A stretch of DNA of 58,670 nucleotides from Eubacteriales bacterium (lineage in GTDB: Bacteria; Bacillota; Clostridia; Christensenellales; Aristaeellaceae), in assembly GCA_031550095.1 (NCBI GenBank), contig JAVBOX010000047.1, positions 1 to 58,670 on the forward strand, read 5' to 3'. How positions within the stretch are numbered: the first letter of the stretch is position 1; each line of letters starts with the position of its first letter. The notes below the pieces were generated by a model. That model had not been told where the DNA came from, did no database searches, and saw only the letters and a list, made by a program, of their open reading frames with translations. The position numbers and the translations under genes are program-made. Below are positions 16,020 to 46,530 of this stretch, piece by piece.

Positions 16020-16046
16020 AAAACGCCCTCCTCATCCAATCATTTT

Positions 16047-22207: not shown

Positions 22208-22307
22208 TTGGTACTCCTTTCCATGGAAGCCATGGGCTTTGGCATGGCAAGCCTTAACACGGAACAAAGAGCGAGCCTACGCTCGCCCTTTGCAAAAAGC
22301 CTAGATT

Positions 22308-23376: not shown

Positions 23377-23477
23377 GGAAGCACCTCCTTGGAAAACTTG
23401 GGTCCCTGAAAAAACGGCCTCAGGGAACTGGCCTGTATATCCATCCCCACAACCCCTGGGGCAGATACCCATGAAAA

Positions 23478-23702
23478 CTATTTCAGCAGACCGGCCACGC
23501 TGGCTTTTACGTCGATGCCGCAGGCCACGCCCAACTGGGCCATGGTATCCGTCTCCGTGAAGCGCACGCCGCATTTTTCACACGCGTCCATCACAGGGCG
23601 GGTAACAAAGGGATCCGCGTCCCGGGCAATATACACATGTTCCAGAGTGCCCGAAGCGATTGCCCGCAACACCTGCCGTGCCCCGACAATCCGGCGCTTC
23701 AT
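23478..23702 (-). CDS. L7Ae-family ribosome-associated protein (YbxF/RplGB-like)
   Basis: [26 protein letters not shown]... in the conserved position between rpoC and rpsL. Start set at MKRRIVG (AGGAAGG SD). The ORF extends to ATG 23741, but that start lies only a few nt after the predicted -10. Confidence 0.8.
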
Positions 23703-23753
23703 GTCCTTCAAGCCTTCCTGCACGGCAACCCCTCCATTCATGGCAACTGAATA

Positions 23754-23783
23754 ATCATATCATAGCCGCGCAATTTTTGTCAA
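23754..23783 (-). promoter_or_regulatory. Putative sigma-A promoter (TTGACA-18-TATGAT) for L7Ae-rpsL-rpsG-fusA
   Basis: On the - strand: TTGACA (23783..23778), an 18-nt spacer, TATGAT (23759..23754). Confidence 0.5.
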
Positions 23784-23858
23784 GCATCACTGCCCGCCCG
23801 CAAACAGGGCAAAGGCGTTTCCATTTGAGCCCGATTTCATTTGACAAAATCGCACCGC

Positions 23859-24741: not shown

Positions 24742-24850
24742 CGCTATCGCTCCTTCTTCCAGGCCCTGGGGCGATATCAGCCAATAAAATTATCCTGGCA
24801 ATGGCAACAAACGGCAAACGCGGCAACAACGGCGGCCCCATCGCCCATCA

Positions 24851-27800: not shown

Positions 27801-28396
27801 TCGTCAATCTCCGACCGAAGCTTTCCGGCCAGATCATCCAAATCCAGGCTTTCCAGCATTTCCTTGACGGCTTCGGCGCCCATTCCGGCCTTGAAGCTGC
27901 CTTCGCCGTACTTTGCCACACATTCCCGGTATTTCTGATCGCTGATCAGGTCATACTTTTTCAGCTCCCGCACCTCACCCGGATCCAGCACGATGAAGGA
28001 GGCAAAATAGAGCACCTTCTCCAGGGACCGGGGGGATACGTCCAGCAGCATGCCCATTCGGGAGGGAATGCCCTTAAAATACCAGATATGGCTCACGGGG
28101 GCGGCCAGCTTGATATGGCCCATCCGCTCCCGGCGAACCTTGGCCCGAGTGACCTCCACGCCGCATTTATCGCAGATGACACCCTTATACCGAACCCTTT
28201 TATACTTGCCGCAGTTGCACTCCCAGTCCTTTTGCGGCCCAAAGATCCGCTCGCAGAATAGGCCATCCTTTTCGGGCTTGAGGGTACGGTAGTTGATGGT
28301 CTCCGGCTTGGAGACCTCGCCCCGGGACCAGGAAAGGATCTTTTCGGGGGACGCCATGCCAATTTGAATGGAATCAAGGTTTGTCAGCTCAAACAA
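24851..28396 (-). CDS. rpoC: DNA-directed RNA polymerase beta-prime subunit
   Basis: 1181 aa with NADFDGDQM catalytic motif and [23 protein letters not shown] zinc finger. Confidence 0.98.
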
Positions 28397-28413
28397 TGTC
28401 TACTTCCTCCCCC

Positions 28414-31400
28414 TTAGAAGTCGTCGTCCAGATTAATGTCCTCAAGATCCGGCACATCGTCGACTTCAAAGTCGTCCAGATCGTCTATCTCAATTTCTTC
28501 ATCCAAGCCGGGCGCCGGCAGCAGAGAGGCGTTGGCCAGCTCTTCGGCCTCCATGCCAAGCTCCGTCTCCTCGTCGTCCGCCTCGCGGATGATGATCTCC
28601 CGCTTGTCCTCGGCCAGCACCTTGATATCCAGGGCCAGGGATTGGAGCTCCTTGATCAACACCTTAAAACTCTCGGGCACGCCGGGCTCGGGAATGTTCT
28701 TTCCCTTGACAATGGCTTCATAGGTCTTTACGCGGCCCACCACGTCGTCCGACTTGACGGTGAGAATCTCCTGGAGGGTGTTGGCGGCGCCATACGCCTC
28801 CAAGGCCCAGACCTCCATCTCTCCAAAGCGCTGGCCGCCAAACTGGGCCTTGCCGCCCAACGGCTGCTGCGTCACCAGGGAGTAAGGGCCTGTGGAACGG
28901 GCATGAATTTTATCATCTACCAAGTGGGACAGCTTCATGATGTACATGTAGCCCACCGTAACCTCGTGTTCGAAGGGGTCACCGGTGCGGCCATCAAAAA
29001 GGGTGGTTTTTCCCGTCTCACTCAGGCCGGCCAGCTTTAAGCAGTCCACGATTTCAGCCTCGCTGGCCCCATCAAACACCGGCGTGGCGATATGCCAGCC
29101 AAGGGCTTTGGCCGCAAGGCCCAGATGAACCTCCAGCACCTGGCCGATGTTCATACGGCTTGGTACGCCCAGGGGGTTCAGCACGATCTCCAGGGGAGTG
29201 CCGTCGGGCAGGAACGGCATGTCCTCCTCCCGCATGATCCGGGAGATAACGCCCTTGTTGCCGTGGCGTCCCGCCATCTTGTCGCCGACGGAAATTTTGC
29301 GCTTCTGGGCGATGTAAACCCGCACCATTTCGTTGACGCCGGGGGACAGCTCATCCCTCCGCTCCCGGGTGAATACCTTTACGTCCACCACAATGCCGCC
29401 CTCGCCGTGAGGAACCTTCAGCGATGTATCCCGTACCTCCCGGGCCTTCTCGCCGAAAATGGCGCGGAGCAGCCGTTCTTCGGCGGTAAGCTCGGTTTCG
29501 CCCTTTGGGGTTACCTTGCCCACCAGGATATCCCCGGCGCGAACTTCCGCGCCAATGCGGACAACGCCGCTTTCATCCAAGTCCTTCAGGGCGTCGTCGC
29601 CAACGTTGGGAATGTCCCGGGTAATTTCCTCCGGCCCCAGTTTGGTATCCCGGGCCTCGGACTCATATTCCTCGATGTGGATGGAGGTATACACGTCATC
29701 CTTCACCAGCTTTTCGCTGATGAGAATGGCGTCCTCGTAGTTGTAGCCTTCCCAGGTCATGAACCCCATCAGGATGTTCCGGCCCAGGCCGATCTCTCCC
29801 TTTTCCGTGGAAGGGCCGTCGGCGATGACCTGTCCCTTCTCCACACGGTCCCCGGCGTTGACGATGGGGCGCTGGTTGATGCAGGTGCCCTGGTTGGAGC
29901 GGGCGAACTTCCGGAGGTTATACAGCTGGGTCCGGTTGTTGTCGGACCGAATCTGGATCTCCCGGGCGCTGACCTTTTCAACAACGCCAGCTTCCTTGGC
30001 CAAAATAACCACGCCGGAGTCCCGGGCCGTCTTATATTCCATTCCTGTGCCCACAATGGGCGCCTGGGGCACCAAAAGGGGAACCGCCTGGCGCTGCATG
30101 TTGGAGCCCATCAGGGCCCGGTTGGCGTCGTCATTTTCAAGGAAGGGAATCATAGCCGTCGCCACGGATACCACCTGCTTTGGGGAAACATCGATATAGT
30201 CCACCTTTTCCCGGGCCACCTCAGTGATATCCTCTACGATGCGGACCGTTACCCGCTGGTTGATGAAATGTCCATCCGCGTCAATGGGCTCGTTGGCCTG
30301 AGCAATGACGTACTTGTCCTCCTCATCCGCCGTCAGGTAGACGATCTCGTCCGTCACCTGATGGGTGTCCGGATTCACATACCGGTAAGGCGCCTCGATA
30401 AAGCCATATTCATTGATGCGGGCATAGGTGGCCAGCGAGCCGATGAGGCCGATGTTGGGACCTTCAGGGGTCTCAATGGGGCAAATGCGGGAATAGTGGG
30501 AGTAGTGAACGTCCCGGACGTCGAAGGAAGCGCGGTCCCGGTTCAGGCCGCCGGGGCCAAGGGCCGAAAGACGGCGCTTGTGGGTCAGCTCAGCCAATGG
30601 GTTGGGCTGATCCATAAACTGGGACAGCTGGGAGGAGCCAAAGAACTCCTTGATCGCCGCCGATACGGGGCGGATGTTGATCAATTCCTGGGGGCGCACG
30701 TCGTTGGCGTCCTGGATGGCCATGCGCTCCTTGACCACCCGCTCCAGCCGGGAAAGGCCGATGCGGATCTGATTTTGAAGCAGCTCGCCCACGGAGCGGA
30801 GGCGCCGGTTGCCCAAGTGGTCGATGTCATCGATGGTGCCGACGCCATAGGGCAGGCCGATCATATAGGAAATGGACGAAACGATATCGTCAATGAGGAT
30901 ATGCTTGGGAATCAGATGGGAGAGATTCTCCCGGAGGGCTTGGGGCAAACTCGCCTCGTCCACCTGCTCCAGAATCTCCCGGAGGGTGGGCAGATGTACA
31001 GACTCGTTGATGCCCACGGTGGCAGGATCAAAGGGTAGCCAGGCGGCGGCATCCACGAAGTTGTTGCCGATGACCTTGATCTCCCGCCCGTCGATCTCCA
31101 GCCGGACCATCTGAACGCCCGCGTTCTGGATGGCGACCGCCGCGTCGGGGAAAATGGTTTTGCCCGCCGCCACCAGCAGCTCGCCTGTTTCCGGGTGGAA
31201 AACATCGCCCGCCGCGTGGAACCCGGCGATACGGGTGGCCATGGAGAGCTTTTTATTGAATTTATAGCGCCCAACGCGCATGAGGTCATAGCGCTTGGGG
31301 TCAAAGAAAAGGGAGCGCAGCAGAGAGCTTGCGGAATCCACCGTGGGGGGCTCGCCGGGGCGGAGCCTTCTGTAGATCTCCAGAAGGCCATCCTCCCGGG

Positions 31401-32091
31401 ACTTGGCGTCGTCCCGCTCAATGGTGGCGCTCAGGCGCTCGTCCTCGCCCAAGAGCTGAATCACCTCGGCATCGGTGCCATAGCCAAGGGCCCGGAGCAG
31501 CACGGTGATGGGCAGCTTCCGGGCACGGTCAATACGCACCCACATGACATCGTTGGAATCGGTCTCGTATTCAAGCCAAGCTCCCCGGTTGGGGATGATG
31601 GTGGCGGAATGAAGCAATTTGCCGGCCTTATCCCTGGCGGCGTCAAAATACACGCCAGGGGAACGGACAAGCTGGCTGACGATGACGCGCTCAGCGCCGT
31701 TGATGATGAACGTTCCGTTTTCGGTCATCAGGGGGAAGTCCCCCATGAAAACGTCGCTCTCCTTGATTTCTCCGGTTTCCTTGTTCTTCAGGCGAACGAA
31801 CACCTTCAGGGAAGCCGCAAAGGTCATATCGCGTTCCTTGCACTTTTCGACGGAATTCTTCGGCTCGTCATCCAAAGAATAATCAACGAATTCCAGAACA
31901 AGGTTTTCGCTGTAGTCGGTAATCGGCGACACATCGTTGAGGACCTCCCGGAGGTCTTCCTCTAGAAAGCGCCTGTAAGAGTTTTTCTGCACCTCGATCA
32001 AATCCGGCATGTCCAGCACCTCATCGATTTGCGAAAAGCTCATCCGCTTCCTGAACCGACCCATTTGCACCTCATGCACCACTGCTTCCAT
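28414..32091 (-). CDS. rpoB: DNA-directed RNA polymerase beta subunit
   Basis: The translation contains [24 protein letters not shown] and [13 protein letters not shown]. The start is ambiguous: ATG 32091, 32064 or 32127. Confidence 0.97.
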
Positions 32092-32198
32092 CACCCCACA
32101 TTCCAACAATTCGCCGCAGCACAACACTCACGCACGCATCATAGGCCCGTCGATTTTTTGCCGAATCTCGGGCGAAGACGATACTGATGCAATATAGC

Positions 32199-32227: not shown

Positions 32228-32279
32228 TGCCTACCATTAAATTTAAGAGAATTTTCCGGGATTGACAAATTCGCCTCAA

Positions 32280-32307
32280 GGGGAATGGCGTTTTCGCGCC
32301 ATTCCCC
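32280..32307 (-). terminator. Perfect 11-bp stem-loop downstream of spoIID (terminator candidate with a weak U-tract)
   Basis: GGGGAATGGCG-TTTTCG-CGCCATTCCCC. Confidence 0.4.
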
Positions 32308-32381
32308 AAAATGTTCCCCTTACCGGGATGCCTACTACCATATGTGGTACACGGCAAAGCATATATCCTTCTTGTTTCCGG

Positions 32382-33356
32382 TCAATACATCTTCACCACA
32401 TCCACATTTTGAAAAAACTCTCCTACAATTTCCTCGGCTTTTTTCCCTTCCTGGGCCAAGGCAAAGGCGCCCCACTGGCTCATGCCCACCCCATGGCCAA
32501 AGCCTTTGCCGGCCATTTTCACCTTTCCATCGGCAATGGACAGCTCCGTCAGGAATGTGGAGCGCATCTTTGTGCTGCCCAGGGCAATGCGGAAATCCGG
32601 CGCGTTGACCTCCTTGCCCCCCAGCATGAGCGTCACCGCCCGGCCGGACTGGCCCTTTTTGCCAATTTCCACGCTGTCCAGGTTATCCACGGCGAACCCA
32701 GCCGCCTTGGCCGCGTCCATGATCTCCTTGCTGGTAAACGTGGCGGACCAGGACGCGGCGTCGGCAGCCGCCTGATCGTTTTCATGTCCCTCGGCCACAC
32801 GGGTATAGGGAGGCTCCGGATCCTTCCAGTTGAGGCCCTCCTTGGCCAGCTCCGTCATGCCGCCGGAATGGGCGTGGAACCAGGCGTAGGGCAGCTCCCC
32901 ATTGGTGGACAGCACCATGCCCCGGGTCTCGGACACCGCCTGTTCCACCACGTCGTTGATGGCGGCCTTGTCATAGGCCTGAGCCTCTTCCACATCCGTG
33001 GAGATGTCAGCGCCTTCATATTTGGACTCCTTCTCCGTCATGAACCGCAGAACAAATGTCCGAGCCAGGATCGCCTGCGCCTTGAGGGCTTCCAGCGGCC
33101 AGTCGTTCTTCATTTCCCCTGCCAGAACCCCGGCAAGGTAGTCCTCCAGGGTCACTTCCTCGATCTTCTCGTCTTCCTTTACATACACAGACAGCACCGG
33201 CACCTGATCCTCGAACCGCTGAATCTTGGCGGGCATGGGCGGCACGGTTCCCCCCGCGGGAGCCTCCGTGGCCTTGGGATTTTCAGAAGCCGCCGAACAC
33301 CCGGCCAGCAAGGCCAGCAGCAGCAGGCAAGAAACGATCACGCGAAAAGCGCGCAT
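32382..33356 (-). CDS. spoIID: Stage II sporulation protein D (SpoIID/LytB-domain lytic transglycosylase), lipoprotein
   Basis: MRAFRVIVSCLLLLALLAGCSAAS contains the lipobox LLAGC. SpoIID-type HSGGMTE, HAHSGG-like and GFGHGVGMSQWGA motifs. GGAGGGG SD. Confidence 0.88.
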   Translation of the reverse strand: MRAFRVIVSCLLLLALLAGCSAASENPKATEAPAGGTVPPMPAKIQRFEDQVPVLSVYVKEDEKIEEVTLEDYLAGVLAGEMKNDWPLEALKAQAILARTFVLRFMTEKESKYEGADISTDVEEAQAYDKAAINDVVEQAVSETRGMVLSTNGELPYAWFHAHSGGMTELAKEGLNWKDPEPPYTRVAEGHENDQAAADAASWSATFTSKEIMDAAKAAGFAVDNLDSVEIGKKGQSGRAVTLMLGGKEVNAPDFRIALGSTKMRSTFLTELSIADGKVKMAGKGFGHGVGMSQWGAFALAQEGKKAEEIVGEFFQNVDVVKMY

Positions 33357-33439
33357 GGATATCCCCTCCGTATTCTTTTTTTGCCAGTTTGCGCCATTGG
33401 ATTCAAAAACATACACGAAAAAGGAAACAAGCGCCGATC

Positions 33440-33468
33440 TTGCAAAAAACCAACATCTCGTCTATACT
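33440..33468 (+). promoter_or_regulatory. Putative sigma-A promoter (TTGCAA-17-TATACT) for the glutamate-fermentation operon
   Basis: TTGCAA 33440..33445, a 17-nt spacer, TATACT 33463..33468. Confidence 0.5.
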
Positions 33469-33504
33469 GGATGGGGCAAAGCCAAATGTGGGAGGACGCA
33501 ATAC

Positions 33505-34350
33505 ATGCGGGAAATCACGGCACAGGCGGTCGCGGCGGAGGCGAAACGCCTGTTTTTGTATGCCTCCACCGTCATCGGGGCGGATGTGGAGGCCGCCATC
33601 TTGCGGGGCATTGAGGAGGAACCTTCCCCGGCGGGGCGATCCGCCCTGGAGCAAATCGCCGAAAACTACACAATCGCCAGGAAAGAAAACATGGCCATCT
33701 GCCAGGACACCGGCATGGCCATTGTCTTTGCGGATATAGGCCAGGATGTCCATATCACGGGAGGGGATTTTGAAACCGCCATCAACGAGGGCGTTCGGGA
33801 GGCCTACCGGGAGGGCTACCTCCGGAAGTCCATCGTAAGCGATCCCCTCTTTGACCGGGTCAACACAAGGGACAACACCCCCGCCGTGGTGCATGTGCGC
33901 ATCGTGCCCGGAGACCGGCTCCATTTATTGGTTACTCCCAAGGGCTTCGGAAGCGAGAACATGAGCCGGATGAAGATGCTGGTGCCCGCCGACGGGGTGG
34001 AGGGGGTAAAGCGCTTCGTGGTGGAGACGGTGGTGGAAGCCGGACCCAACCCATGCCCTCCGGTGATCGTGGGCGTGGGCATCGGCGGCAGCATGGAAAA
34101 GGCCGCCCTTCTGGCCAAGCGGATGACCGCCCGAACAGTGGGAAGCCACAACGCCGATCCCCGCTACGCGGAACTGGAAGACCGGATTCTGGCTTCCATC
34201 AACCGCTCCGGCGTGGGCCCCGCAGGCATCGGCGGGCGCATCACAGCCCTTTGCGTCAACATCGATTTTTTCCCAACCCATATCGCCGGGCTCCCCGTGG
34301 CGGTCAACGTCTGCTGCCATGCGGCACGGCATGGGGAAGGGGTGTTGTGA
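33505..34350 (+). CDS. Fe-S type (class I) hydro-lyase alpha subunit, fumarate hydratase/mesaconase type
   Basis: 281 aa with the CQDTGMAIVF and GVGIGG motifs of the tartrate/fumarate Fe-S hydro-lyase alpha family. GGGAGGA SD. Confidence 0.88.
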   Translation: MREITAQAVAAEAKRLFLYASTVIGADVEAAILRGIEEEPSPAGRSALEQIAENYTIARKENMAICQDTGMAIVFADIGQDVHITGGDFETAINEGVREAYREGYLRKSIVSDPLFDRVNTRDNTPAVVHVRIVPGDRLHLLVTPKGFGSENMSRMKMLVPADGVEGVKRFVVETVVEAGPNPCPPVIVGVGIGGSMEKAALLAKRMTARTVGSHNADPRYAELEDRILASINRSGVGPAGIGGRITALCVNIDFFPTHIAGLPVAVNVCCHAARHGEGVL

Positions 34351-34904: not shown

Positions 34905-35330
34905 ATGGGACACGAAAAGAAAACGCTGGTGATCGGGGTCATTGGGGCGGATGTACACGCGGTCGGCATTCAGATTCTCAACTACGCTTTCACGGAGGCC
35001 GGGTTCACCGTGGTCAATCTGGGCGTCATGGTTTCCCAGGAGGAATACATTGAGGCGGCCGTGGAAACGGCGGCGGACGCTATCGTGGTGTCCTCCCTGT
35101 ACGGCCACGGGGAGCTGGACTGCCGAGGGTTTCGGGAGAAGTGCGACGAAGCCGGCTTGAAGGAGATCCTGCTCTATGTGGGCGGGAACATCGTCGTGGG
35201 AAAACAGCCTTTTGAGGAGGTGGAGCAGCGGTTCCATGCCATGGGCTTCAATCGGGTATACGGCCCTGGCACACCGCCGGAAACCACCATCGCCGCGCTA
35301 AAAGAAGATCTGTACGGAGAAAAGCCATGA
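34905..35330 (+). CDS. glmS: Glutamate mutase (methylaspartate mutase) small subunit S, B12-binding
   Basis: 141 aa with the GADVHAVG (DxHxxG) cobalamin-binding motif. Confidence 0.92.
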
Positions 35331-36712
35331 CGTCTGTTCTCCTCATCGACTTCGGTTCTACCTACACCAAGGTCACCGCCGTGGATGTGGAATCACCGGC
35401 CATCCTGGGCACCGCCAGCGCCCACACCACCATTCTGACGGATATCGGCGACGGGCTGGACGAGGCGCTTGAGAGGCTCAATGCCCAAACCGGTCCTCTC
35501 TCCTTCGCCGCGCGGTACGCTTGCTCCAGCGCGGCGGGAGGACTTCGGATGATCGCGTGCGGGCTGGTGCCCTCCCTCACCGTGGAGGCGGCTAGGCGGG
35601 CGGCCCTAGGCGCGGGGGCCAAGGTCATCCGGGTATACAGCTATGAGTTGACGGCGGAGGACGGGGCGGAGATCGGCTCGCTTAAGCCGGACATCCTCCT
35701 TTTGACCGGGGGCACCGATGGGGGCAACAAAGAAAACATCCTCCAGAACGCGGGTGCGCTGGCCCATGTGCCGGGGGACTTCCCCATCGTCGTCGCCGGA
35801 AACCGGGCAGTCACGGCCCAGTGCCTGGAGCTGCTTTCCGGTTCCTCCCACCCGACGATCCCTTGCGCCAACGTGATGCCGGTGTTCAACAGCCTCAACA
35901 TCGAGCCTGTGCAAGAGGTTATAAGGGAATTATTTCTCCGCCGGATCGTCCAGGCCAAGGGCCTTTCCAGGCAGCAGAGCCTTCTGGACGGCATCATGAT
36001 GCCCACCCCCGCCGCGGTGCTGGAGGCCCTAAAGCTCCTTTCGGAAGGCGTGCCCGGCCAACGAGGCATGGGAGATCTGGTGGCCGTGGATTTGGGCGGC
36101 GCCACCACGGATGTGTACTCCATCGCCGACGGCCTCCCCGCGGATGCTATGACGCTGCTGCGGGGCCTGCCGGAGCCCCACGCCAAGCGGACGGTGGAGG
36201 GGGATATCGGCATGCGCTACAGCGCCCAGGGCGTTGTGGAGGCGGTGGGGATGGATAAAATCGCTTCCCTGTCCGGCCTTTCGGAGCCGGAAATCATGTC
36301 CTGCCTCGCCCGCGTCAAGGCCTCCCCAGATGTCTTGTCCGCCCAGAACGATCCCCTGGCCCGGATGGATTTCGCCCTGGCGGTATCCGCCATCGACCGG
36401 GCGCTTGTCCGCCACGCGGGCATCATCGAGCGAGTTTATACCCCCAACGGCATGCTCGCCCAGCAAACGGGCAAGGATCTAACCCGGGTGGAAACCATGA
36501 TCCTCACAGGCGGCGCACTGGCCTTTGGAGGCAATGCCGGGAAAATCGCCAAAGCCGCGACAGAGAGCCCCGGGAATTCAAACGCCCTGCGGCCGGCCCA
36601 TGCCAGGGCGCTGCTGGACAAGCGGTACATCCTGGCGGCCATGGGCCTGCTCAGCGGACAGCATCCCCATGCCGCGTTCACCCTCATGAAGCGACTATTT
36701 CTACAGGAATAA
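35327..36712 (+). CDS. glmL: Glutamate mutase accessory/reactivating protein GlmL (MutL)
   Basis: 461 aa with an [16 protein letters not shown]-type ATPase start. Sits between glmS and glmE as in clostridial mut operons. Confidence 0.85.
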
Positions 36713-36724
36713 AGGAGTAAAACC

Positions 36725-38173
36725 ATGGGACTTTGCAACAAGCGAATCCAAGAAGGTGAATTCTGGTCGGAGCGCCAGTCCGTCCTGGCCCAATGGCCAA
36801 CCGGCGCGGATGTGGATCTGAACGAAGCCATCGCTTATCAAAAGGCCATTCCGGCAGCCAAGCGTTTCTCCGAAAAGCTTCGTGAAGCGGCGGCAAAGGG
36901 AGTGACGCTGATTCAGCCCCGGGCCGGCGTTCCCCTCATTGAAAAGCATATCGAGCTGCTCACCCATCTGGAGACGGCGGGGGAAGCGGACTTGCTGCCA
37001 ACCACCATCGACAGCTATACCCGGCTAAACCGCTATGAGGAGGCGGAAAAGGGGATTCGGGAAAGCACCCTGCAGAATAAGGCCATGCTCAACGGCTTCC
37101 CCGCCGTGAACCACGGCGTCGGCGGGTGCCGCCGGGTGACAGAGGCGGTGAAATCCCCCGTGCAGGGTCGCCACGGCACGCCGGACGCAAGGCTGCTGGC
37201 CGAGATCACCCTGGCGGGAGGGTTTACGAGCTACGAGGGCGGCGGCATATCCTATAACATTCCCTACTGCAAAAATGTGCCCATGGAAAAGACCATCAGG
37301 GACTGGCAGTATGTGGACCGGCTCACCGGATATTATGAGGAGCAGGGAATCGAGATCAACCGAGAGCCCTTTGGTCCCCTGACGGGCACGCTGGTGCCCC
37401 CCTGCGTTTCCCACGCCGTGGCGGTCACAGAGGCCCTTCTGGCGGCGGAGCAAGGGGTTCGAAACATCACGGTGGGGTACGGCCAATGCGGCAACCTGAT
37501 CCAGGACGTGGCGGCCATCCGCTCCTTGGCAATGCTCACCAACGAATACCTTGCCAAATACGGGTACGCGTGCGAGGTAACCACCGTGCTCCACCAATGG
37601 ATGGGAGGCTTTCCCCAGGACGAGGCAAAGGCTTTCAGCGTCATTTCCTGGGGCAGCGCCGCGGCCGCCTTGGGCGGCGCCACAAAGGTCATCGTCAAAA
37701 CGCCCCACGAGGCCATCGGCATCCCCACGGCGGATGCAAACGCCCAGGGCCTCCGCTGCACAAAACAGATCATCTCCATGCTGGCGGATCAGCGCTTTGG
37801 GGACAGCACGGCCTTGGACGAGGAAATCCGCATCATACGCGAGGAAACCCGCTGCATCCTGGAGAAAACATTGGAGCTGGGCAGCGGCGACATTGCCGAG
37901 GGCACCGTGCGGGCGTTTCAGGCGGGGGTCATCGACGTTCCGTTCGCCCCCAGCCGCATCAACGCCGGGAAAATACTGCCCGCCCGGGACAACGATGGCG
38001 CCATCCGCCTACTGGACCCCGCTAACCTGCCCCTGACCCAAGCCTTGAAGGACTTCCATCGGGAGAAGATTCAGGCCCGAGCCAAAGCAGAAAAGCGGGA
38101 CGTCAGTTTCCAGATGGTTACGGACGATATCTACGCCATCAGCAAAGGCAGGCTGGTGGGCCGCCCCCGGTAA
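36725..38173 (+). CDS. glmE: Glutamate mutase (methylaspartate mutase) large subunit E
   Basis: 482 aa. TIM-barrel GlmE-like sequence (IQPRAGV...TIDSYTR...). AAAGGAG SD. Confidence 0.92.
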
Positions 38174-38239: not shown

Positions 38240-39496
38240 ATGAAAATTACCAAGCTCATCTACGCGCCAGGCCGGACCGGGTTTTTCTTTGACGATCAAA
38301 AAGCCATCAAGACCGGCGCCATCGCGGATGGCTCCGCCTATCGGGGAGATCCTATGACGCCGGGCTTTTCCGCCGTCCGCCAGGCGGGAGAGGCCATTTC
38401 AGTCATGCTTGTGCTGGAAAACGGCGAAATCGGCTGGGGAGACTGTGCCGCTGTTCAGTATTCCGGCGCGGGCGGCCGGGATCCGCTGTTCCTGGCTTCC
38501 GAGTTCATTCCCATCCTGGAGTCCACGGTAGCCCCCGCCTTGGTCGGTGAGGAAGCGGACAGCTTCCGGCGGCTATGCCAAAGGCTGGAGTCCATTCGTG
38601 TGGAGGGCAAACCCCTCCATACGGCCATCCGCTACGGGGTGTCCCAAGCCATCTTAGACGCCGTCGCCAAATCCAGGCGGCTGAACCTGTGCGACGTGGT
38701 GGCCCAGGAGTATGGCACAAAGGTGGCGGAAGCCATGCTGCCCATATTCACCCAGTCCGGAGACAGCCGCTATGACAATGCGGACAAGATGATATTAAAG
38801 CACGCGCAAGTGCTGCCCCATGGGCTCATCAATAACATGAACACCAAGCTGGGCAAAGACGGAGGCCTGTTGCTGGAATACATCGGCTGGCTTCGGGACC
38901 GGATCATCGCCCTCCGGCCGGAGCCGGATTACGCCCCTGTGCTGCACCTGGACTGCTACGGCACCATCGGGCAGGCTTTCGGAAACGACAACTACCCGGC
39001 CATGGCGGACTATTGCGCGAAACTCTGCGAGGCCGCCAAGCCTTTCCATCTCCGGGTGGAAGGCCCCATGGATTCCGGCAGCCGAGAGTGGCAAATGAAG
39101 GATTTGGCGGGCCTGACGGCGCTGCTGGATGCCCGGGGCATCGATGTGGAACTAGTGGCGGATGAGTGGTGCAACACCTATGAGGACGTCCGGTACTTCG
39201 CCGACAACAGGGCCGGACATATGATTCAGATCAAGACCCCGGATCTTGGTTCCATCCATAATACCGTGGAAGCCGTTCTCTATTGCCAGCAAAAGGGCAT
39301 CAGCGCTTACCAGGGCGGCACCTGCAACGAGACAGACCGCTCCGCCCAGGTCTGTGCGCAAATCGCCATGGCCACCGGCCCGGCCCAGATTCTGGCCAAG
39401 CCGGGCATGGGCGTGGATGAGGGCTATATGATCGTTTTCAATGAGATGCAGCGTGTGCTGGCCCTTCGGCGCGCGGGAATTGGCGTGGCGAAGTAA
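38240..39496 (+). CDS. mal: 3-methylaspartate ammonia-lyase
   Basis: 418 aa of the enolase-superfamily methylaspartase type (MKI..L.. start, IQIKTPDLGS, QGGTCNETD). Confidence 0.92.
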   Translation: MKITKLIYAPGRTGFFFDDQKAIKTGAIADGSAYRGDPMTPGFSAVRQAGEAISVMLVLENGEIGWGDCAAVQYSGAGGRDPLFLASEFIPILESTVAPALVGEEADSFRRLCQRLESIRVEGKPLHTAIRYGVSQAILDAVAKSRRLNLCDVVAQEYGTKVAEAMLPIFTQSGDSRYDNADKMILKHAQVLPHGLINNMNTKLGKDGGLLLEYIGWLRDRIIALRPEPDYAPVLHLDCYGTIGQAFGNDNYPAMADYCAKLCEAAKPFHLRVEGPMDSGSREWQMKDLAGLTALLDARGIDVELVADEWCNTYEDVRYFADNRAGHMIQIKTPDLGSIHNTVEAVLYCQQKGISAYQGGTCNETDRSAQVCAQIAMATGPAQILAKPGMGVDEGYMIVFNEMQRVLALRRAGIGVAK

Positions 39497-39561: not shown

Positions 39562-40920
39562 ATGCGCGAGGAGTACCGTATTCTTTCCACCACAGCCATC
39601 CTGGGCTATGGTTTTCCCATCGCTTCCTTTGAGGCGGGCATGGCGAGAAAGCCCCATCTCATCGCCGTGGACGCCGGCTCCACGGACCCCGGCCCCTATT
39701 ATTTGGGCGCGGGAGAGAGCTTTACCGACCGGAACGCCGTAAAGCGGGATCTCTCTATCATGCTCCCGGCAGCCGTGGAACACGCCATTCCCGTGGTGAT
39801 CGGAACGGCGGGAGGCAGCGGCGCGGACATCCATGTGGCCTGGTGCCGGGAGATCATCGAGGAAATCGCCCGGGAACAAAACCTCCATTTTCAAATGGCG
39901 GTCATCGGCGCGGAGATCCCCAAGGAAACCCTCCGGACGGCCTTGGCGGAGGGCAGGATCACGCCGCTGGCCCCCGCTCCGGCGCTAACCTCAAAGACCC
40001 TGGAGGCCACGGTCCGGGTGGTGGGCCAGATGGGCGTCGAGCCTTTCATCAAGGCCTTGGACGCGGGCGCCCAGGTGATCCTGGCGGGCCGGGCATACGA
40101 TCCGGCGTGCTTCGCGGCGGCGGCTGTCCGGGCAGGGTATGATCAGGGCTTGGCCACCCATCTGGGCAAGATTCTTGAATGCGCGTCCATTGCGGCCACG
40201 CCTGGCAGCGGTTCGGACTGCATGTTCGGCTACCTGGGGGAGGATTACTTCCGCCTGGAACCCTTGAACCCCATACGCAAATGCACCTCCCTTTCCGTAG
40301 CGGCTCATACGCTCTATGAAAAGACCAACCCCTATGTGCTTCCCGGGCCGGGGGGCTCCCTGGATCTCCGGGACGCCAAGTTCGAGCAGGAAACCGAATC
40401 CATCGCCAGGGTGACGGGGAGCCGGTTTATCCCATCCAGCCCTTATACCATCAAGCTAGAAGGGGCCAGGCCCATTGGCTACCGGACGATCTCCATCGCC
40501 GGCACCCGGGATCCCATCATGACGCGGGAGATCGATAACATCACCGCGGCCGTTCGGGAAAGGGTTTCGGACAACTTCAAGGGAGCGAATTTCGAATACA
40601 CCCTCCACTTCATCCTCTATGGCCGGGATGGGGTCATGGGCAAGCTGGAACCTACGCCAATTGCGGATGGGCATGAGCTGGGCATCGTCATCGAAGCCAT
40701 CGCGGACACCCAGGCCCAGGCCGACACCATCTGCGCCTTTGCCCGGTCCACCATGCTCCATTACGGCTATTCGGGCCGCATGGCCACGGCGGGAAACCTG
40801 GCCTTCCCCTATTCGCCCAGCGATTTTCACGCGGGGCAAGTGTTCGTGTTCAGCCTTTACCACCTCATCACCGTGGACGATCCCTGCGCCCTGTTCCCCA
40901 TGACCCTGATCGCCCTGTAA
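39562..40920 (+). CDS. AtuA-like (DUF1446) protein of unknown biochemical function
   Basis: 452 aa. By eye it resembles acyclic-terpene-utilisation AtuA/DUF1446 family proteins (ILGYGFP ... AVDAGSTDPGPYYLG ... ILAGRAYD ... HLGKILECA). AAAGGAG SD, 65 nt after mal. Confidence 0.7.
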   Translation: MREEYRILSTTAILGYGFPIASFEAGMARKPHLIAVDAGSTDPGPYYLGAGESFTDRNAVKRDLSIMLPAAVEHAIPVVIGTAGGSGADIHVAWCREIIEEIAREQNLHFQMAVIGAEIPKETLRTALAEGRITPLAPAPALTSKTLEATVRVVGQMGVEPFIKALDAGAQVILAGRAYDPACFAAAAVRAGYDQGLATHLGKILECASIAATPGSGSDCMFGYLGEDYFRLEPLNPIRKCTSLSVAAHTLYEKTNPYVLPGPGGSLDLRDAKFEQETESIARVTGSRFIPSSPYTIKLEGARPIGYRTISIAGTRDPIMTREIDNITAAVRERVSDNFKGANFEYTLHFILYGRDGVMGKLEPTPIADGHELGIVIEAIADTQAQADTICAFARSTMLHYGYSGRMATAGNLAFPYSPSDFHAGQVFVFSLYHLITVDDPCALFPMTLIAL

Positions 40921-40932
40921 AGGAGGCGCCAC

Positions 40933-41250
40933 ATGCAAACAAAGCTCACCGATATCGCGGGCATCATCCGCAGCAAAAACTCGGGACCTTATGAGCTGAC
41001 CCTGGATATCATGTTCAAGACACGGGAATGGTACGAGCGGGCGAGGGACGCGGGGGCCATCAACGCGGACGTGGTCTGCGGGCTCTACCGCATTGAGCCC
41101 AAGGACATCATCAACATCATCGCCTTTGAGCCCGCCAACGCCATCAAAATCACCATCGTCCGCCCCATTTGCTCCGGCGACCCGGGGGAGACGGATGTCT
41201 ATGGCGCCCAGCAGCACGCGCCGCTGTTGGGGCTTACCCTTGATATTTAG
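40933..41250 (+). CDS. DUF4387 small protein (usual partner of DUF1446)
   Basis: 105 aa with IRSKNSGPYELTLDIMF ... IKITIVRP ... DVYGAQQHAPLL. AAAGGAGG SD, 12 nt after the preceding stop. Confidence 0.7.
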   Translation: MQTKLTDIAGIIRSKNSGPYELTLDIMFKTREWYERARDAGAINADVVCGLYRIEPKDIINIIAFEPANAIKITIVRPICSGDPGETDVYGAQQHAPLLGLTLDI

Positions 41251-41274: not shown

Positions 41275-42606
41275 ATGAAAAAACATGCATTTGCGGCCGT
41301 TACGCTATGCCTCTGCCTTCTCTGCGGCGCCTGCTTTGCCCAGACGGAAACATGGTCCGCCCAGGGAGCGGCGCTCGCCTTGGTGGAACGGCTGGCCGCG
41401 GGGGATTACGGGGCCGTTTCCGGCGAGGCCGATGAATCCATCCGGGCAATGCTCACCCCCGAAATCATTCAACAAGCGTGGGAGGATGCCGTAGCAGCCT
41501 TAGGCGCGTATCAGGGCATTGATGTCGCGGTGGAAGCACAGCAGGGAAATCAGCGAGTCGCTCAGGTGATGCTCAACCATGAAGGCGGCCAGCAGGCGTT
41601 CGTCGCCGTCTATAATGAACAGCGGAAGCTTGCGGGCTTGCAGCTGATTCCCGTGCCCAAGTACGCGGAAGAAACGCCTTTGCCCCTTCCGGAGGGCGCT
41701 GCCGAGGAGCCCATCCGCTTGCGCCCGGACGAAGCGGACGAGACAGGGGGCATGCTCACGCTGCCAAAGGGAGACGGGCCTTTCCCCGCCGTGGTGCTCA
41801 TCCATGGTTCCGGCGCGTCGGACATGGACGAGACCGTCTTTGGCATGAAGCCCTTCCGGGACATCGCCATGGGTTTGGCGGAGCAGGGCATCGCCTCGCT
41901 CCGGTACGACAAATACACCTATGCCCATGGCGATCTGCTCAAGGACGCCGTCGCCACCATCCAAACCGAGTATGAACTGGATGTGACCGCCGCGGTGGCG
42001 CTGCTCAAGGCGGACGCCCGGATTGGCGACATCTATCTGGCCGGTCACAGCGAAGGCGGCATGCTGATTCCCCGCCTGCTAGACCTCCGCAAGGAGGACG
42101 TCAAGGGCGCCGTCATCCTGGCGGGATCGCCCCGCGGCCTTTGGGAAATTCAAGCCATGCAGAATGAATACGCCTATGCAAACGCAACCGAGGAGCAGAA
42201 GGCGTCCGCCCAAGCCTTTATCGACATTGAAATAGAGAAGGGACAGCGGCTGGACACCATGGGCGAGGCGGAGCTTGCGGCCGAGACCGTCTTTGGCATT
42301 CCCGCCGCGTACCATAAGGATCTCGCCAGCGTGGACCCCATCGCCAAAGCCAAGGAGCTGGCCATGCCCTTGCTCATCCTGCAAGGGGGTAAAGACTTTC
42401 AGGTAAGCCCCGCTGTGGACTTTGAGGCTTGGAAGGCCGGGCTCTCCGGCGTTGATTTCGTGTCCTTCATCCTCTATCCGGATTTGACCCACCTGTTCAC
42501 CCCCCTGGAAGGCGATACCACCAACAGCGTGGACGACTATTCCAATGGGGGCCACGTGTCACCGGAGGTCAGTCAAAACATCGGCGCCTGGATTCAAGCG
42601 AGATAG
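41275..42606 (+). CDS. Secreted alpha/beta hydrolase with N-terminal DUF3887-like domain
   Basis: 443 aa. Signal peptide MKKHAFAAVTLCLCLLCGACFAQ. GHSEGG nucleophile elbow. GGAGAGAAAGGG SD. Confidence 0.8.
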   Translation: MKKHAFAAVTLCLCLLCGACFAQTETWSAQGAALALVERLAAGDYGAVSGEADESIRAMLTPEIIQQAWEDAVAALGAYQGIDVAVEAQQGNQRVAQVMLNHEGGQQAFVAVYNEQRKLAGLQLIPVPKYAEETPLPLPEGAAEEPIRLRPDEADETGGMLTLPKGDGPFPAVVLIHGSGASDMDETVFGMKPFRDIAMGLAEQGIASLRYDKYTYAHGDLLKDAVATIQTEYELDVTAAVALLKADARIGDIYLAGHSEGGMLIPRLLDLRKEDVKGAVILAGSPRGLWEIQAMQNEYAYANATEEQKASAQAFIDIEIEKGQRLDTMGEAELAAETVFGIPAAYHKDLASVDPIAKAKELAMPLLILQGGKDFQVSPAVDFEAWKAGLSGVDFVSFILYPDLTHLFTPLEGDTTNSVDDYSNGGHVSPEVSQNIGAWIQAR

Positions 42607-42633: not shown

Positions 42634-43560
42634 ATGCCGCAGCCGCGCCGCCCCCGCATTCTGGACGACCGCTGCCTCTACAGCGTGTACTTCGCGCCCA
42701 GAGGGGCCATGCGCATGACTGAAATGGGCATGCAGATCGCACAGCGGCATCTTACGGCCTTTGACCGGCTTATCGGCGTGGTGGGGGAAGCCGGCTCCGG
42801 CAAGAGCATCCTGCTCCGAGGCATGTTCCCAGGCCTTGAGCTATCCAACGACGACAACGGGGTGAACGTGCGACCTCTGCCCATTCTGGACATCAGCTCC
42901 GGCGGTTTTTATCAGCCCCACACATTCCATATCGACATGCGGTTTGAGATGGCCTTTACCCAAATGCATGTCCTTGCCAACGCGGTTCGGGAAGCCATTC
43001 ATCGTGGCAGGCGGGTGGTGGTGGAGCATTTTGATCTGCTCTACCCCCACCTGGATATCAACGCTGAACTTCTCATCGGCGTCGGTGAGGACATCATCGT
43101 CACCCGGCCCACCCTTTTCGGCCCAGAACCCCAGGATCTGGCCAATATTGTCCATAAATCCATCCGCTACCGCCGCATGGCCCACACGGCGGAGGATCTG
43201 GTGGAGCGGTTTCTCTGGGACCCCTATCACGGGGAATACGCCCATTCTGACGTGCGGCATGGCTTTGTGCTCTCCTTTGAAAAGTGCCCGGATGTCGATC
43301 TGGAACTCATGGAAAAATGGGTTCTGGAGCAAATCGCCCTGGATCTCCCCGTCTGCTATGTGGATGAGGAGCATATCCGCTTTGGGGAGAAGCTGCACCA
43401 CTGCACCGGCCCTCGGATGCATGTGGCCTCCACTGGGAAAATCGAAAATTTCCGAATGCTACACGAGTTCAAGTTTGACCCCATCGACGCCCGCTTTCTC
43501 ATGGTGGGCCTTGTGGGGGAACCCATTGCCGACATGCGGGATTTAAACAAAATATCATAA
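42634..43560 (+). CDS. Uncharacterised P-loop NTPase
   Basis: 308 aa. Walker A is VVGEAGSGKS and a possible Walker B is RRVVVEHFD. I recognise no further family. AAAGGAGG SD 7 nt upstream of ATG 42634. Confidence 0.75.
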   Translation: MPQPRRPRILDDRCLYSVYFAPRGAMRMTEMGMQIAQRHLTAFDRLIGVVGEAGSGKSILLRGMFPGLELSNDDNGVNVRPLPILDISSGGFYQPHTFHIDMRFEMAFTQMHVLANAVREAIHRGRRVVVEHFDLLYPHLDINAELLIGVGEDIIVTRPTLFGPEPQDLANIVHKSIRYRRMAHTAEDLVERFLWDPYHGEYAHSDVRHGFVLSFEKCPDVDLELMEKWVLEQIALDLPVCYVDEEHIRFGEKLHHCTGPRMHVASTGKIENFRMLHEFKFDPIDARFLMVGLVGEPIADMRDLNKIS

Positions 43561-43571: not shown

Positions 43572-43619
43572 GCCATGCCGATTGGGTATACCATACCTAG
43601 CGGCATGGTGATTTTATTT
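43572..43619 (+). terminator. Rho-independent terminator, the first convincing one after the 33.5-43.6 kb gene string
   Basis: GCCATGCCG-20-nt loop-CGGCATGGT followed by GATTTTATTTC. Confidence 0.7.
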
Positions 43620-43666
43620 CTCAATATCTTGTGTTGACATGCCGCCTTATCCCCTATATAATGTAA
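43619..43666 (+). promoter_or_regulatory. nrdD promoter (TTGACA-17-TATAAT) overlapped by two NrdR-box-like sites
   Basis: Box 1 is TCTCAATATCTTGTGT (43619..43634). Box 2 is CCCCTATATAATGTAA (43651..43666). Their starts are 32 bp apart. TTGACA is at 43634..43639 and TATAAT at 43657..43662. Confidence 0.6.
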
Positions 43667-43708: not shown

Positions 43709-46009
43709 ATGAAGCGCGATGGGCGCACGGTACCCTTCACAGCAGAAAAAATCGAACAAGCCGTACTAAAAGCGCTCCAGGCATCCGGCAGCGCCAAAGG
43801 GCCGGAAACCGCACGTTCCATCGCGCTGGATGTCAAAGAGAAAATCGAGCGGGATGAATCCATCGATATTCCCACAGTGGAACAAGTGCAGGACATTGTC
43901 GAGCAAACGCTCATCGAAAGCGGCTTTACGCATACCGCCAAGGCCTACATCCTCTACCGGGCCGAACGGAGCCGGATTCGGGAGATGAACGGCCGCCTCA
44001 TGAAGACCTTGGGCGATATCACGTTCAAAAACTCGCTGGATTGCGACATCAAGCGGGAAAACGCCAACATCAATGGGGATACCCCCATGGGCATTATGCT
44101 CAAATATGGCTCGGAAAGCGCCAAGCAGTTTTATGATATGTACGTGCTCAATCCAAAGCACGCCCAGGCCCACCGGAATGGGGACATCCACATCCATGAT
44201 CTGGATTTTCTGACCCTGACCACCACCTGCTGCCAGATCGATCTGGTCAAGCTGTTCAGGGGCGGCTTTTCCACGGGCCACGGTTCCCTTCGGGAGCCTC
44301 AAAACATCGCTTCCTACGCGGCGCTTTGCTGCATCGCTATCCAATCCAACCAAAACGACCAGCACGGCGGCCAGTCCATTTCCAACTTTGACTATGGCAT
44401 GGCGCCAGGGGTTTCCAAAACGTTTGTGAAAATATACAAGAAGAACCTTTCCAACGCCCTGGAGCTCTTAGCCAATGTTGAGGAGGCCGACGTGGAAGCG
44501 GAGCGGCTCATGGGTATCGTCCGTCAGCAGACGGGCATGCTGCCCACCCTGGACGAGGCTATTCCCTTCACCAAAGCCCTTCTCCCGCTGATTGAAGGCC
44601 TGTCCGATAAGGCTACCGCTCAGCGGGCCCTTGCCTTTGCCCAGCGCAAGGCGATCCGGGAGACGGATCATGCCACCTATCAGGGCATGGAGTCCCTGGT
44701 GCATAACCTGAACACCATGCACTCCCGTGCTGGGGCCCAAATACCCTTTTCCTCTATCAATTACGGCATGGACACCTCCGCGGAAGGCCGCATGGTGATG
44801 AAAAACCTGCTGAAAGCCACGGAAGCCGGCATGGGCCGGGGAGAGACGCCCATTTTCCCCATCCAGATATTCCGCGTGAAGGAAGGCGTAAACTACAACC
44901 CTGGCGATCCCAACTACGATCTGTTTCGCCTGGCCATCAGGACCTCCGCAAAGCGCCTTTTCCCCAACTTCAGCTTCATGGACGCCCCCTTTAACGCCAA
45001 GTACTACAAGGGAACCCCGGAGACGGAAATCGCCTACATGGGCTGCCGCACCCGGGTGATCGGCAATGTCTACGACCCGGATCAGGAAATCGTTCCCGGC
45101 CGGGGGAACCTTTCGTTTACATCGGTGAATCTGCCCCGCCTGGCCATCGAATCAGACGGAAACACGGATCTTTTCTTTCAGAAGCTGGACGCGCAAATGG
45201 ACTTGGTCTTTGACCAGCTGGACGAGCGCTTCCGCATCCAGTGCAAAAAGAAGGTCTTCAACTATCCCTTCCTCATGGGCGAGGGCATTTGGCTGAACAG
45301 CGACAAGCTGGGCTGGAACGACGAAGTGGGCGAGGTGCTCAAGCACGGCACCCTAACCGTAGGCTTCATCGGCCTTGCGGAGACCCTCAAAAGCCTTCTC
45401 GGCGCCCACCATGGGGAAAGCCCGGAGGCCCAGGCCCTTGGGTTGAAGCTCATTGGCCATATGCGCACCCGCTGCGATGAGCGCAGCGAAAGGACGCGGC
45501 TCAACTATACCCTAATCGCCACGCCCGCGGAGGGCCTTTCCGGCCGCTTTGTACACATGGACCGAAAGAAATACGGCAATCTGCCCGGCATTACCGACCG
45601 GGATTACTATACCAACAGCTTCCATGTGCCTGTTTACTACCCCATCAACGCCTTCGATAAAATCCAAATTGAGGCGCCCTATCATGCCTTGACCAACGCG
45701 GGGCATATCACCTATGTGGAATTGGACGGGGACCCCATGCAGAACCTGGAAGCCTTTGAGCGCATTGTCCGGGCCATGCGGGAGGCGGGGGTGGGCTATG
45801 GCTCCATCAACCATCCCATCGACCGGGATCCTCTTTGCGGTTACAATGGCATCATCAACGACACCTGCCCCCAGTGCGGCCGCAGCGAGGCTGGCGGCCA
45901 GCATTTTGAGCGGATCCGCAGAATCACGGGATACCTTGTCGGCACCCTGGACCGTTTCAACAACGCCAAGCGATCCGAGGAGCGAGACCGGGTGAAGCAC
46001 CAGCTATGA
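43709..46009 (+). CDS. nrdD: Anaerobic ribonucleoside-triphosphate reductase
   Basis: 766 aa. N-terminal ATP-cone (MKRDGRTVPFTAEKIEQAV). C-terminal CPQCG zinc site and the RRITGYL glycyl-radical motif. Confidence 0.96.
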   Translation: MKRDGRTVPFTAEKIEQAVLKALQASGSAKGPETARSIALDVKEKIERDESIDIPTVEQVQDIVEQTLIESGFTHTAKAYILYRAERSRIREMNGRLMKTLGDITFKNSLDCDIKRENANINGDTPMGIMLKYGSESAKQFYDMYVLNPKHAQAHRNGDIHIHDLDFLTLTTTCCQIDLVKLFRGGFSTGHGSLREPQNIASYAALCCIAIQSNQNDQHGGQSISNFDYGMAPGVSKTFVKIYKKNLSNALELLANVEEADVEAERLMGIVRQQTGMLPTLDEAIPFTKALLPLIEGLSDKATAQRALAFAQRKAIRETDHATYQGMESLVHNLNTMHSRAGAQIPFSSINYGMDTSAEGRMVMKNLLKATEAGMGRGETPIFPIQIFRVKEGVNYNPGDPNYDLFRLAIRTSAKRLFPNFSFMDAPFNAKYYKGTPETEIAYMGCRTRVIGNVYDPDQEIVPGRGNLSFTSVNLPRLAIESDGNTDLFFQKLDAQMDLVFDQLDERFRIQCKKKVFNYPFLMGEGIWLNSDKLGWNDEVGEVLKHGTLTVGFIGLAETLKSLLGAHHGESPEAQALGLKLIGHMRTRCDERSERTRLNYTLIATPAEGLSGRFVHMDRKKYGNLPGITDRDYYTNSFHVPVYYPINAFDKIQIEAPYHALTNAGHITYVELDGDPMQNLEAFERIVRAMREAGVGYGSINHPIDRDPLCGYNGIINDTCPQCGRSEAGGQHFERIRRITGYLVGTLDRFNNAKRSEERDRVKHQL

Positions 46010-46530
46010 CCGATCCAGTTCTGCGCGTCTTTGGCACCGTGGCGGAATCCATCGTGGACGGCCCCGGGCTGCGGTTTTCCGTGTTTACCCAGGGCTGCCC
46101 CCACGGATGCCCCGGCTGTCACAACCCCGGAAGCCATGATCCATTGGCGGGAAACACCATGGGCGTTTCTGAAATCGCCGCGCTGATCAAAACCAATCCA
46201 TTGCTATCCGGCGTTACGCTTACCGGTGGGGATCCCATGGAACAAGCCTCCGTTTGCCTAGCCCTCGCGCAAGCGCTGCCTTCTCCTTTAACCCTTTGGG
46301 TCTACACCGGCTACACCTACGAGGAAATCCTCGCCTCCAAGGATCCAAGCCGAATCGCCCTAGCCCATCGGGCGGATGTTTTGGTAGATGGCCGCTTCGT
46401 TCAGGCGGAGCGGTCCTTGGGTTTGCCCTTTCGCGGCAGCCGGAACCAGCGCGTCATCGACATAAAAAAAACCCTCGCCAAAGGCGAGGTTATGCTGTGG
46501 GAGCCGGAAGCTTGGGTGACGGAGGACTAG
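46006..46530 (+). CDS. nrdG: Anaerobic ribonucleotide reductase activating protein (radical SAM)
   Basis: 174 aa with VDGPGLRFSVFTQGCPHGCPGCHN. 4-nt overlap with nrdD. Confidence 0.95.
   Translation: MTDPVLRVFGTVAESIVDGPGLRFSVFTQGCPHGCPGCHNPGSHDPLAGNTMGVSEIAALIKTNPLLSGVTLTGGDPMEQASVCLALAQALPSPLTLWVYTGYTYEEILASKDPSRIALAHRADVLVDGRFVQAERSLGLPFRGSRNQRVIDIKKTLAKGEVMLWEPEAWVTED

Follow-up and report, generated by a model that had tools for sequence, protein, structure and literature searches.

A gene pair downstream of methylaspartate ammonia-lyase in a Eubacteriales genome very probably encodes the two-subunit citramalate lyase CmlAB

Known citramalate lyases and their relatives

The citramalate lyase of Clostridium tetanomorphum is a CitDEF-like complex which depends on an acyl carrier protein (ACP) (Buckel and Bobi, 1976, as cited in PMC4682846). 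The subject here is a pair of genes, cmlA and cmlB, of the AtuA/DUF1446 and DUF4387 families, which follow the methylaspartate ammonia-lyase gene mal in a stretch of 58,670 nucleotides (nt) from a Eubacteriales bacterium (contig JAVBOX010000047.1 of assembly GCA_031550095.1); this whole 58.7-kilobase (kb) stretch is called the window below. The pair very probably encodes CmlAB, a heteromeric two-subunit citramalate lyase. CmlAB would share with the C. tetanomorphum enzyme both the overall reaction, (S)-citramalate to pyruvate and acetate, and the position in the pathway, but the proteins are unrelated, and the CitDEF-like enzyme requires a prosthetic group borne by an acyl carrier subunit as well as the activation enzymes CitC/X/G.

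A link between mal and this family was described by Kronen and Berg (2015, PMC4682846), who found that in E. coli O157:H7 and in Dictyoglomus thermophilum mal is followed by a DUF1446 gene, which had no assigned function at that time. The linkage to mal is the same in the window. It should be noted that conventional citramalate lyase activity was undetectable in E. coli O157:H7, that the fate of citramalate was left open, and that the DUF1446 gene had wrongly been entered in databases under the name of methylaspartate ammonia-lyase (PMC4682846). In Prevotella intermedia mal and the adjoining AtuA-family genes are co-induced (PMC10434189).

The citramalate lyase of Raoultella planticola consists of two subunits encoded by cmlAB, and with it E. 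coli can turn mesaconate into acetyl-coenzyme A (acetyl-CoA) by way of FumA and Cml, which was established by plasmid curing and 13C labelling (bioRxiv 10.64898/2026.01.16.699985). That preprint gives no primary reference for the enzyme. The CmlAB of R. planticola and the Enterobacteriaceae (PDB entries 9ERQ and 9EVF) resembles the window pair in the size and family of its subunits, one of about 455 residues from the AtuA family and one of 105 residues with the DUF4387 domain, and in the order mal-cmlA-cmlB after glmS-glmL-glmE. The full order in E. coli is glmS-glmL-glmE-mal-AtuA-DUF4387-gltP-fumD-cobO, found in 1123 of 5426 complete genomes; in E. coli EC42405 the pair lies at 9953-11637 of the locus we call L001, where RefSeq names the two genes AtuA and DUF4387. 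The enterobacterial cluster differs from that in the window by having a single FumD after the transporter, where the operon of the window, from a Firmicute host, begins with a split MesA/MesB, by having gltP and cobO, both of which the window cluster lacks, and by lacking the inserted esterase gene and the gene for a TsaE-like ATPase which are found in the window.

AtuA of Pseudomonas, the namesake of PF07287, belongs to the same Pfam superfamily as CmlA, but it has another gene context and is distant in sequence (the window CmlA scores 74.5 bits against the Pfam model). We know of no reaction assigned to AtuA itself. In the Atu pathway a tertiary 3-hydroxy acid (3-hydroxy-3-isohexenylglutaryl-CoA) is cleaved with release of acetate, a step which may by its chemistry be regarded as analogous to the cleavage of citramalate.

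The cmlA and cmlB genes

The two genes of the pair are:

39562..40920, + strand: cmlA, large citramalate lyase subunit (AtuA/DUF1446 family), 452 residues, best matched by PDB chain 9erq_A and, in Foldseek, by 9evf_A
40933..41250, + strand: cmlB, small citramalate lyase subunit (DUF4387), 105 residues, matched by PDB chain 9erq_B and Pfam DUF4387

The original prediction had described two open reading frames (ORFs) following mal on the same strand, each preceded by a strong Shine-Dalgarno (SD) site, with gaps of 65 and 12 nt, and its coordinates are exact: the mal-cmlA spacer is 65 nt and the cmlA-cmlB spacer 12 nt. An SD-like GAAAGGAG stands ahead of the cmlA ATG and AAGGAGG ahead of the cmlB ATG, at a distance of 6-8 nt. 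A pattern scan found no terminator-like site between mal and cmlAB, and the 65-nt spacer in front of cmlA folds no better than its shuffles (z=+1.08), in agreement with the prediction that no hairpin or T-tract separates the genes.

The family assignments of the two proteins were also borne out when the profile search was run. The 452-residue protein matches PF07287 (AtuA) with E=9.6e-21 and 74.5 bits against a cutoff of 22.8, the best stretch being partial and covering profile positions 59-208 of 437, and the 105-residue protein matches PF14330 (DUF4387) with E=6.9e-39. There are 7713 homologues at E<=1e-10, and with homologues in the thousands both ORFs can be regarded as real genes. NCBIfam 20.0 holds no model for either CmlA or CmlB.

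Probable identity as citramalate lyase

When the window proteins were compared to the sequences in the PDB, CmlA matched chain 9erq_A, "Citramalate lyase, subunit A (cmlA)", with E=7.8e-159 and 532 bits, residues 3-441 of the query aligning to 3-439 of the chain (phmmer), and CmlB matched chain 9erq_B, "Citramalate lyase, subunit B (cmlB)", with E=2.9e-32 over residues 2-104. The reference chain 9erq_A aligns over all 456 residues and with few substitutions to the E. coli orthologue (E=3.2e-292), as would be expected of an enterobacterial protein. To its own orthologue in E. coli the window CmlA has 56% identity, and the window CmlB has 50%.

The structural comparison was made with an AlphaFold2 model of the large subunit only, built from 58 homologues, which has a mean predicted local distance difference test score (pLDDT) of 86.6 and a predicted template modelling score (pTM) of 0.84. 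In Foldseek this model matches 9evf_A with E=2.4e-62, template modelling (TM) scores of 0.91/0.91, a root-mean-square deviation of 2.8 over 453 columns and 55% identity. The entry 9EVF is the "Citramalate lyase - ADP - pyruvate complex" released 2025-10-08. It is the sole match of the model at E<=0.001, the next one having E=6e-3, which is noise, and the fold of CmlA thus has no other solved relative. The ADP in the 9EVF complex may act as cofactor or effector, or be bound there for structural reasons.

In 12 CmlA sequences, ranging from the window protein to that of E. coli, long motifs show no variation. Examples are DAGSxDPGPxYLGAG (37-51), GxAGGSG (81-87), GRxYDP (176-181), GKILECA (202-208), PGSGSDC (214-220), AAHTLYEK (247-254), LPGPGG (260-265), RSTMLHxGY (395-403) and TAGNLAFPxSPSD (409-421).

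The original prediction held that the two families had no assigned reaction. This is out of date, since 9ERQ and 9EVF name CmlA and CmlB as citramalate lyase. Cleavage of citramalate was the first of the options it listed for the pair, and this is the reaction for which the closest characterised relatives in 9ERQ and 9EVF are named and which the preprint used; the further options, a maintenance factor or another fate of mesaconate or methylaspartate, are not needed.

The proposed pathway

The model for the pathway in this organism is as follows. GlmS and GlmE together with GlmL would convert glutamate to methylaspartate, which would be deaminated by Mal to mesaconate. MesAB, whose genes open the operon, would hydrate mesaconate to (S)-citramalate, and CmlAB would finally cleave (S)-citramalate to pyruvate and free acetate, using neither CoA nor an acyl carrier protein. 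CmlAB would accordingly be a non-homologous stand-in for the ACP-dependent CitDEF-like lyase of C. tetanomorphum.

Every step of this pathway other than the lyase is encoded upstream of cmlAB in the same operon, by mesA, mesB, glmS, glmL, glmE and mal, with NCBIfam matches at the equivalog level, as had been predicted. The accompanying claim that the window holds no CitD/E/F-like gene stands as well: a tblastn search with the E. coli CitC/D/E/F/X/G proteins gave no hit in the window better than E 0.15, and there were no HpcH_HpaI, CitF or ACP Pfam matches among the large window ORFs scanned.

Conservation of the locus

A survey scan with one genome per species gave at least 586 confirmed relatives of CmlA. 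The loci of the best 80 of these at least 586 relatives, all from other species and with a CmlA 63-86% identical to that of the window, were taken with 10-kb flanks, and their neighbour genes were identified by tblastn with the window proteins. The hosts are mostly Oscillospiraceae, Christensenellales, Eubacteriales, Clostridia, Treponema/Sphaerochaeta, Vallitalea, Terrisporobacter and Desulforamulus, with a few Bacteroidia, Kiritimatiellia and Verrucomicrobiota. The closest relatives of the window CmlA are found in metagenome-assembled genomes of Eubacteriales/Christensenellales, with 86-91% identity.

The original prediction had proposed a survey of how often such pairs lie near glm and mal genes and whether citramalate lyase genes of the CitDEF type are lacking there. 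In 78 of the 80 loci cmlB is directly 3' of cmlA, the remaining two being contig ends. The mal gene is immediately 5' of cmlA in 60 of the 71 loci which have at least 1.5 kb upstream, and in 4 more it lies within 5 kb; glmE was found in 52 of the 58 loci having at least 5 kb upstream. No CitCDEFXG gene was found within 10 kb of cmlA in any of the 80 loci. An unsupervised clustering of the ORFs gave as conserved real families only CmlA, CmlB, Mal, GlmE, GlmL, GlmS, MesA, MesB, a family of about 334 residues which looks like a regulator, and the 308-residue protein treated below.

Some loci lack the first part of the pathway. Among the 49 long-flank loci glmE is absent from the fetched region in 6, and 3 of these 6 retain mesAB near cmlAB. 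In one of these 3, Desulforamulus putei (locus L067, 7063-11686), the genes of a dctPQM tripartite ATP-independent periplasmic (TRAP) dicarboxylate transporter are directly upstream of cmlAB, and mesAB, phosphoenolpyruvate (PEP) carboxykinase and an Sdh cytochrome subunit are encoded a few kb downstream. This context points to an organism which imports mesaconate, citramalate or a related acid from its surroundings and degrades it. Since there are cmlAB loci without glm and mal, some of which keep mesAB, cmlAB tracks the mesaconase/citramalate end of the pathway and the use of dicarboxylates, and not the mutase. Besides L067, the loci L072, L074, L080, L059, L075 and L081 also have cmlAB without glm or mal in the fetched flanks.

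The wider family contains 2507 clusters at 50% identity with E<=1e-3, of which 494 have E<=1e-30. Among 150 representatives, all 18 listed ones longer than 520 residues have, on the C-terminal side of the AtuA domain and at or close to the end of the chain, a fused domain which resembles CmlB/DUF4387, and these fused domains are 36-53% identical to the window CmlB. The fused representatives are:

P0244, P0268, P0271, P0278, P0318, P0322, P0333, P0337 and P0344
P0347, P0349, P0360, P0361, P0369, P0370, P0376, P0381 and P0382

Single-chain CmlA-CmlB enzymes are thus common in other branches of DUF1446, and from such gene fusions it can be concluded that CmlA and CmlB act as one functional unit. 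If it is true that AtuA of the Pseudomonas type is among the fused proteins, this would be a hint that AtuA is also an acetate-releasing lyase.

Weighing of alternatives

Several points weigh against the identification of the pair as citramalate lyase. Homology, fold, synteny and operon layout of the pair were computed here; the reaction of CmlAB is taken from the names of the PDB entries and from bioRxiv 10.64898/2026.01.16.699985, which used the enzyme. That the window orthologue shares this activity is what we infer from its homologues, and the identity to the characterised enterobacterial enzyme is just about 55-56% for CmlA and about 50% for CmlB. The partial AtuA match of 74.5 bits marks the cmlA clade, as judged from the profile, as a divergent branch of DUF1446. 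Finally, a CitDEF-type lyase could exist elsewhere in the genome, beyond the 58.7 kb of the window. Two of these points, the identity of about 55% and the room for CitDEF in the rest of the genome, also speak for the reading that the pair is a lyase of the CmlAB type for some other 2-hydroxy-dicarboxylate (malate, methylmalate or citrate) and that the cleavage of citramalate falls to a CitDEF-type enzyme whose genes lie outside the window. The CmlAB loci with TRAP dicarboxylate transporters and without glm and mal fit such a reading too, in that the family may not be restricted to a single acid. We nevertheless find it unlikely, because the order mal-cmlA-cmlB is that of the reference lineage, the pair adjoins mal in 60 of 71 loci and never has CitDEF nearby, and the long invariant motifs are common to proteins from the Firmicutes through to E. 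coli.

That the pair has no catalytic role in the pathway and, as an accessory factor, assists or maintains glutamate mutase or methylaspartase could be argued from its tight linkage to mal and from the historical labelling of the DUF1446 gene as methylaspartate ammonia-lyase (PMC4682846). This is at variance with a homologue which is named lyase and was crystallised with pyruvate, with the function of cmlAB in E. coli without supplied glm or mal, and with the 6 of 49 long-flank loci in which cmlAB occurs without glm and mal; an accessory role is therefore very improbable. The name of the Pfam family, with a match over the gathering threshold, might instead be taken to mean that the pair is a true AtuA-type enzyme of acyclic terpene (citronellol/geraniol) catabolism which by chance lies beside mal. 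With 74.5 bits this partial match is weak beside the 532 bits to CmlA, the host has the look of an anaerobic Firmicute which forms spores, and Pfam scans of the 58.7-kb window found no genes for the acyl-CoA carboxylase, dehydrogenase and hydratase of the atu/liu type. Gene context has effectively refuted the terpene reading, which we give the least credence of all. The constant order mal-cmlA-cmlB, the structure with bound pyruvate, the activity in a foreign host and the lack of atu genes tell against all three alternatives, and the identification as CmlAB is the one we retain.

The operon and its surroundings

In the list of ORFs mesA, mesB, glmS, glmL, glmE, mal, cmlA, cmlB, the esterase gene and the gene for the 308-residue protein form one tight row on the + strand. 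The features upstream of cmlA, and those which bound the row, are:

32382-33416, - strand: spoIID, divergent from the operon
33440..33468, + strand: promoter-like site TTGCAA-17-TATACT with 9/12 consensus matches, in the 88-nt gap between the divergent spoIID and mesA
33505..34350, + strand: mesA, class I Fe-S hydro-lyase alpha subunit (mesaconase/fumarase type), Pfam Fumerase E=4e-111, NCBIfam NF004885
34319..34903, + strand: mesB, Fe-S hydro-lyase beta subunit, Pfam Fumerase_C E=4e-61, NCBIfam NF005310 E=1.8e-82
34905..35330, + strand: glmS, methylaspartate (glutamate) mutase subunit S, NCBIfam equivalog NF002612 E=2.6e-66
35327..36712, + strand: glmL, mutase accessory protein, NCBIfam NF040745 E=3.6e-174
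36725..38173, + strand: glmE, methylaspartate mutase subunit E, TIGR01503 E=5.6e-227
38240..39496, + strand: mal, methylaspartate ammonia-lyase, TIGR01502 E=4.8e-176
43572..43621, + strand: intrinsic terminator, a 17-bp interrupted GC-rich hairpin and a U-rich GATTTTATTTCT tail, 11 nt past the stop codon of the 308-residue protein gene
43634-43662, + strand: perfect 12/12 sigma-70 promoter TTGACA-17-TATAAT, 12 nt past the operon terminator, serving nrdD-nrdG
43709-46009, + strand: nrdD
46006-46530, + strand: nrdG

The true start of mesA is the ATG at 33505, which follows a GGGAGG SD sequence. The ORF which begins with TTG and covers 33226-34350 on the + strand is mesA with a false extension of 93 codons, an artefact, and the family alignments start at residue 94 of this longer ORF. 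Another ORF with a TTG start, 450 residues long (32262-33614, + strand), is spurious: it has no family match, is antisense to spoIID and overlaps the start of mesA.

By its consensus match the site at 33440..33468 is probably the promoter of the operon and is presented here as a candidate. The terminator at 43572-43621 was overlooked by the pattern-based terminator scan, and only folding of the spacer revealed it; its RNA fold has -32.6 kcal/mol and z=-5.93, and none of 200 shuffles was equally stable. The genes from mesA through that of the 308-residue protein are probably one transcription unit, running from the promoter at 33440-33468 to the terminator at 43572-43621.

The regions 12881-17195 and 20114-32127, with genes on the - strand, give a core chromosomal context. 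Genes of this context are gcvT, gcvPA and gcvPB of glycine cleavage, fusA-rpsG-rpsL, rpoC-rpoB, an addA-like helicase-nuclease gene, ffh, rimM, trmD, spoIID and nrdDG. As the surrounding genes are those of the core chromosome of a spore-forming Firmicute, the operon is not on an obvious mobile element. The spoIID and nrdDG genes suggest that this Firmicute is an anaerobe.

The two genes downstream of cmlB

The last two genes of the operon are:

41275..42606, + strand: secreted EstD-like alpha/beta hydrolase of 443 residues with an N-terminal DUF3887 domain and a signal/lipoprotein-like peptide (Pfam, NCBIfam)
42634..43560, + strand: conserved protein of 308 residues, last gene of the operon, TsaE-like in AlphaFold2/Foldseek and conserved in related loci

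The hydrolase gene lies between cmlB and the 308-residue protein gene with gaps of 24 and 27 nt and has its own SD sequence. It was found at the same position in just one of the 80 related loci (L006), and this points to a lineage-specific insertion into the operon. The hydrolase is probably unrelated to the methylaspartate pathway.

The 308-residue protein has no sequence match in Pfam, NCBIfam or the PDB. Its AlphaFold2 model (pLDDT 88.1) resembles, over the N-terminal approximately 170 residues, the P-loop ATPases TsaE/YjeE/YdiB, with Foldseek E values of about 1e-4 and target-normalised TM scores of 0.51-0.57. The N-domain carries the Walker A sequence GEAGSGKS, and the C-terminal domain has an invariant H247...C257-T-G-P-R-x-H263. 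Some databases name the homologues [quoted passage not shown]. Two other identities were rejected: it has no similarity to the CobO/CobA adenosyltransferases, of which it might have been a divergent member (E=1.1), nor to the hypothetical protein encoded upstream of E. coli glmS (E=4.1).

The gene is present in 52 of the 80 related loci; it is directly after cmlB in 44 of the 70 with room for it and elsewhere in the locus in 7 more. Among the long-flank loci it occurs in 36 of the 43 with glmE as against none of the 6 without glmE. The enterobacteria lack the gene, and the CmlAB of R. planticola works in E. coli with no 308-residue protein supplied. From these three observations together we infer that the protein is more likely to assist the mutase and methylaspartase steps of the pathway than the lyase step. 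We tentatively suggest, giving it somewhat less than an even chance, that the gene encodes an accessory factor of the methylaspartate pathway which depends on ATP and has so far not been described. Possible roles for such a factor are the handling or repair of the cofactor of the B12-dependent glutamate mutase, in which it would replace the enterobacterial cobO, or the nucleotide loading of the ADP-binding CmlAB.

Implications

How bacteria without a CitDEF-type enzyme complete the fermentation of glutamate was an open question in 2015 and has since been answered by CmlAB. The enzyme is thus already known: the association of mal with DUF1446 dates from 2015, and its function is on record in the PDB entry of 2025 and the preprint of 2026. 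What the window adds is one more orthologue, from an uncultured Eubacteriales/Christensenellales-like Firmicute. Annotation lags behind, in that NCBIfam has no model for cmlAB and RefSeq still says AtuA and DUF4387, and given this lag metabolic reconstructions will wrongly score the methylaspartate pathway as incomplete. The one part of the window that may yet hold new biology is the conserved gene for the TsaE-like ATPase.

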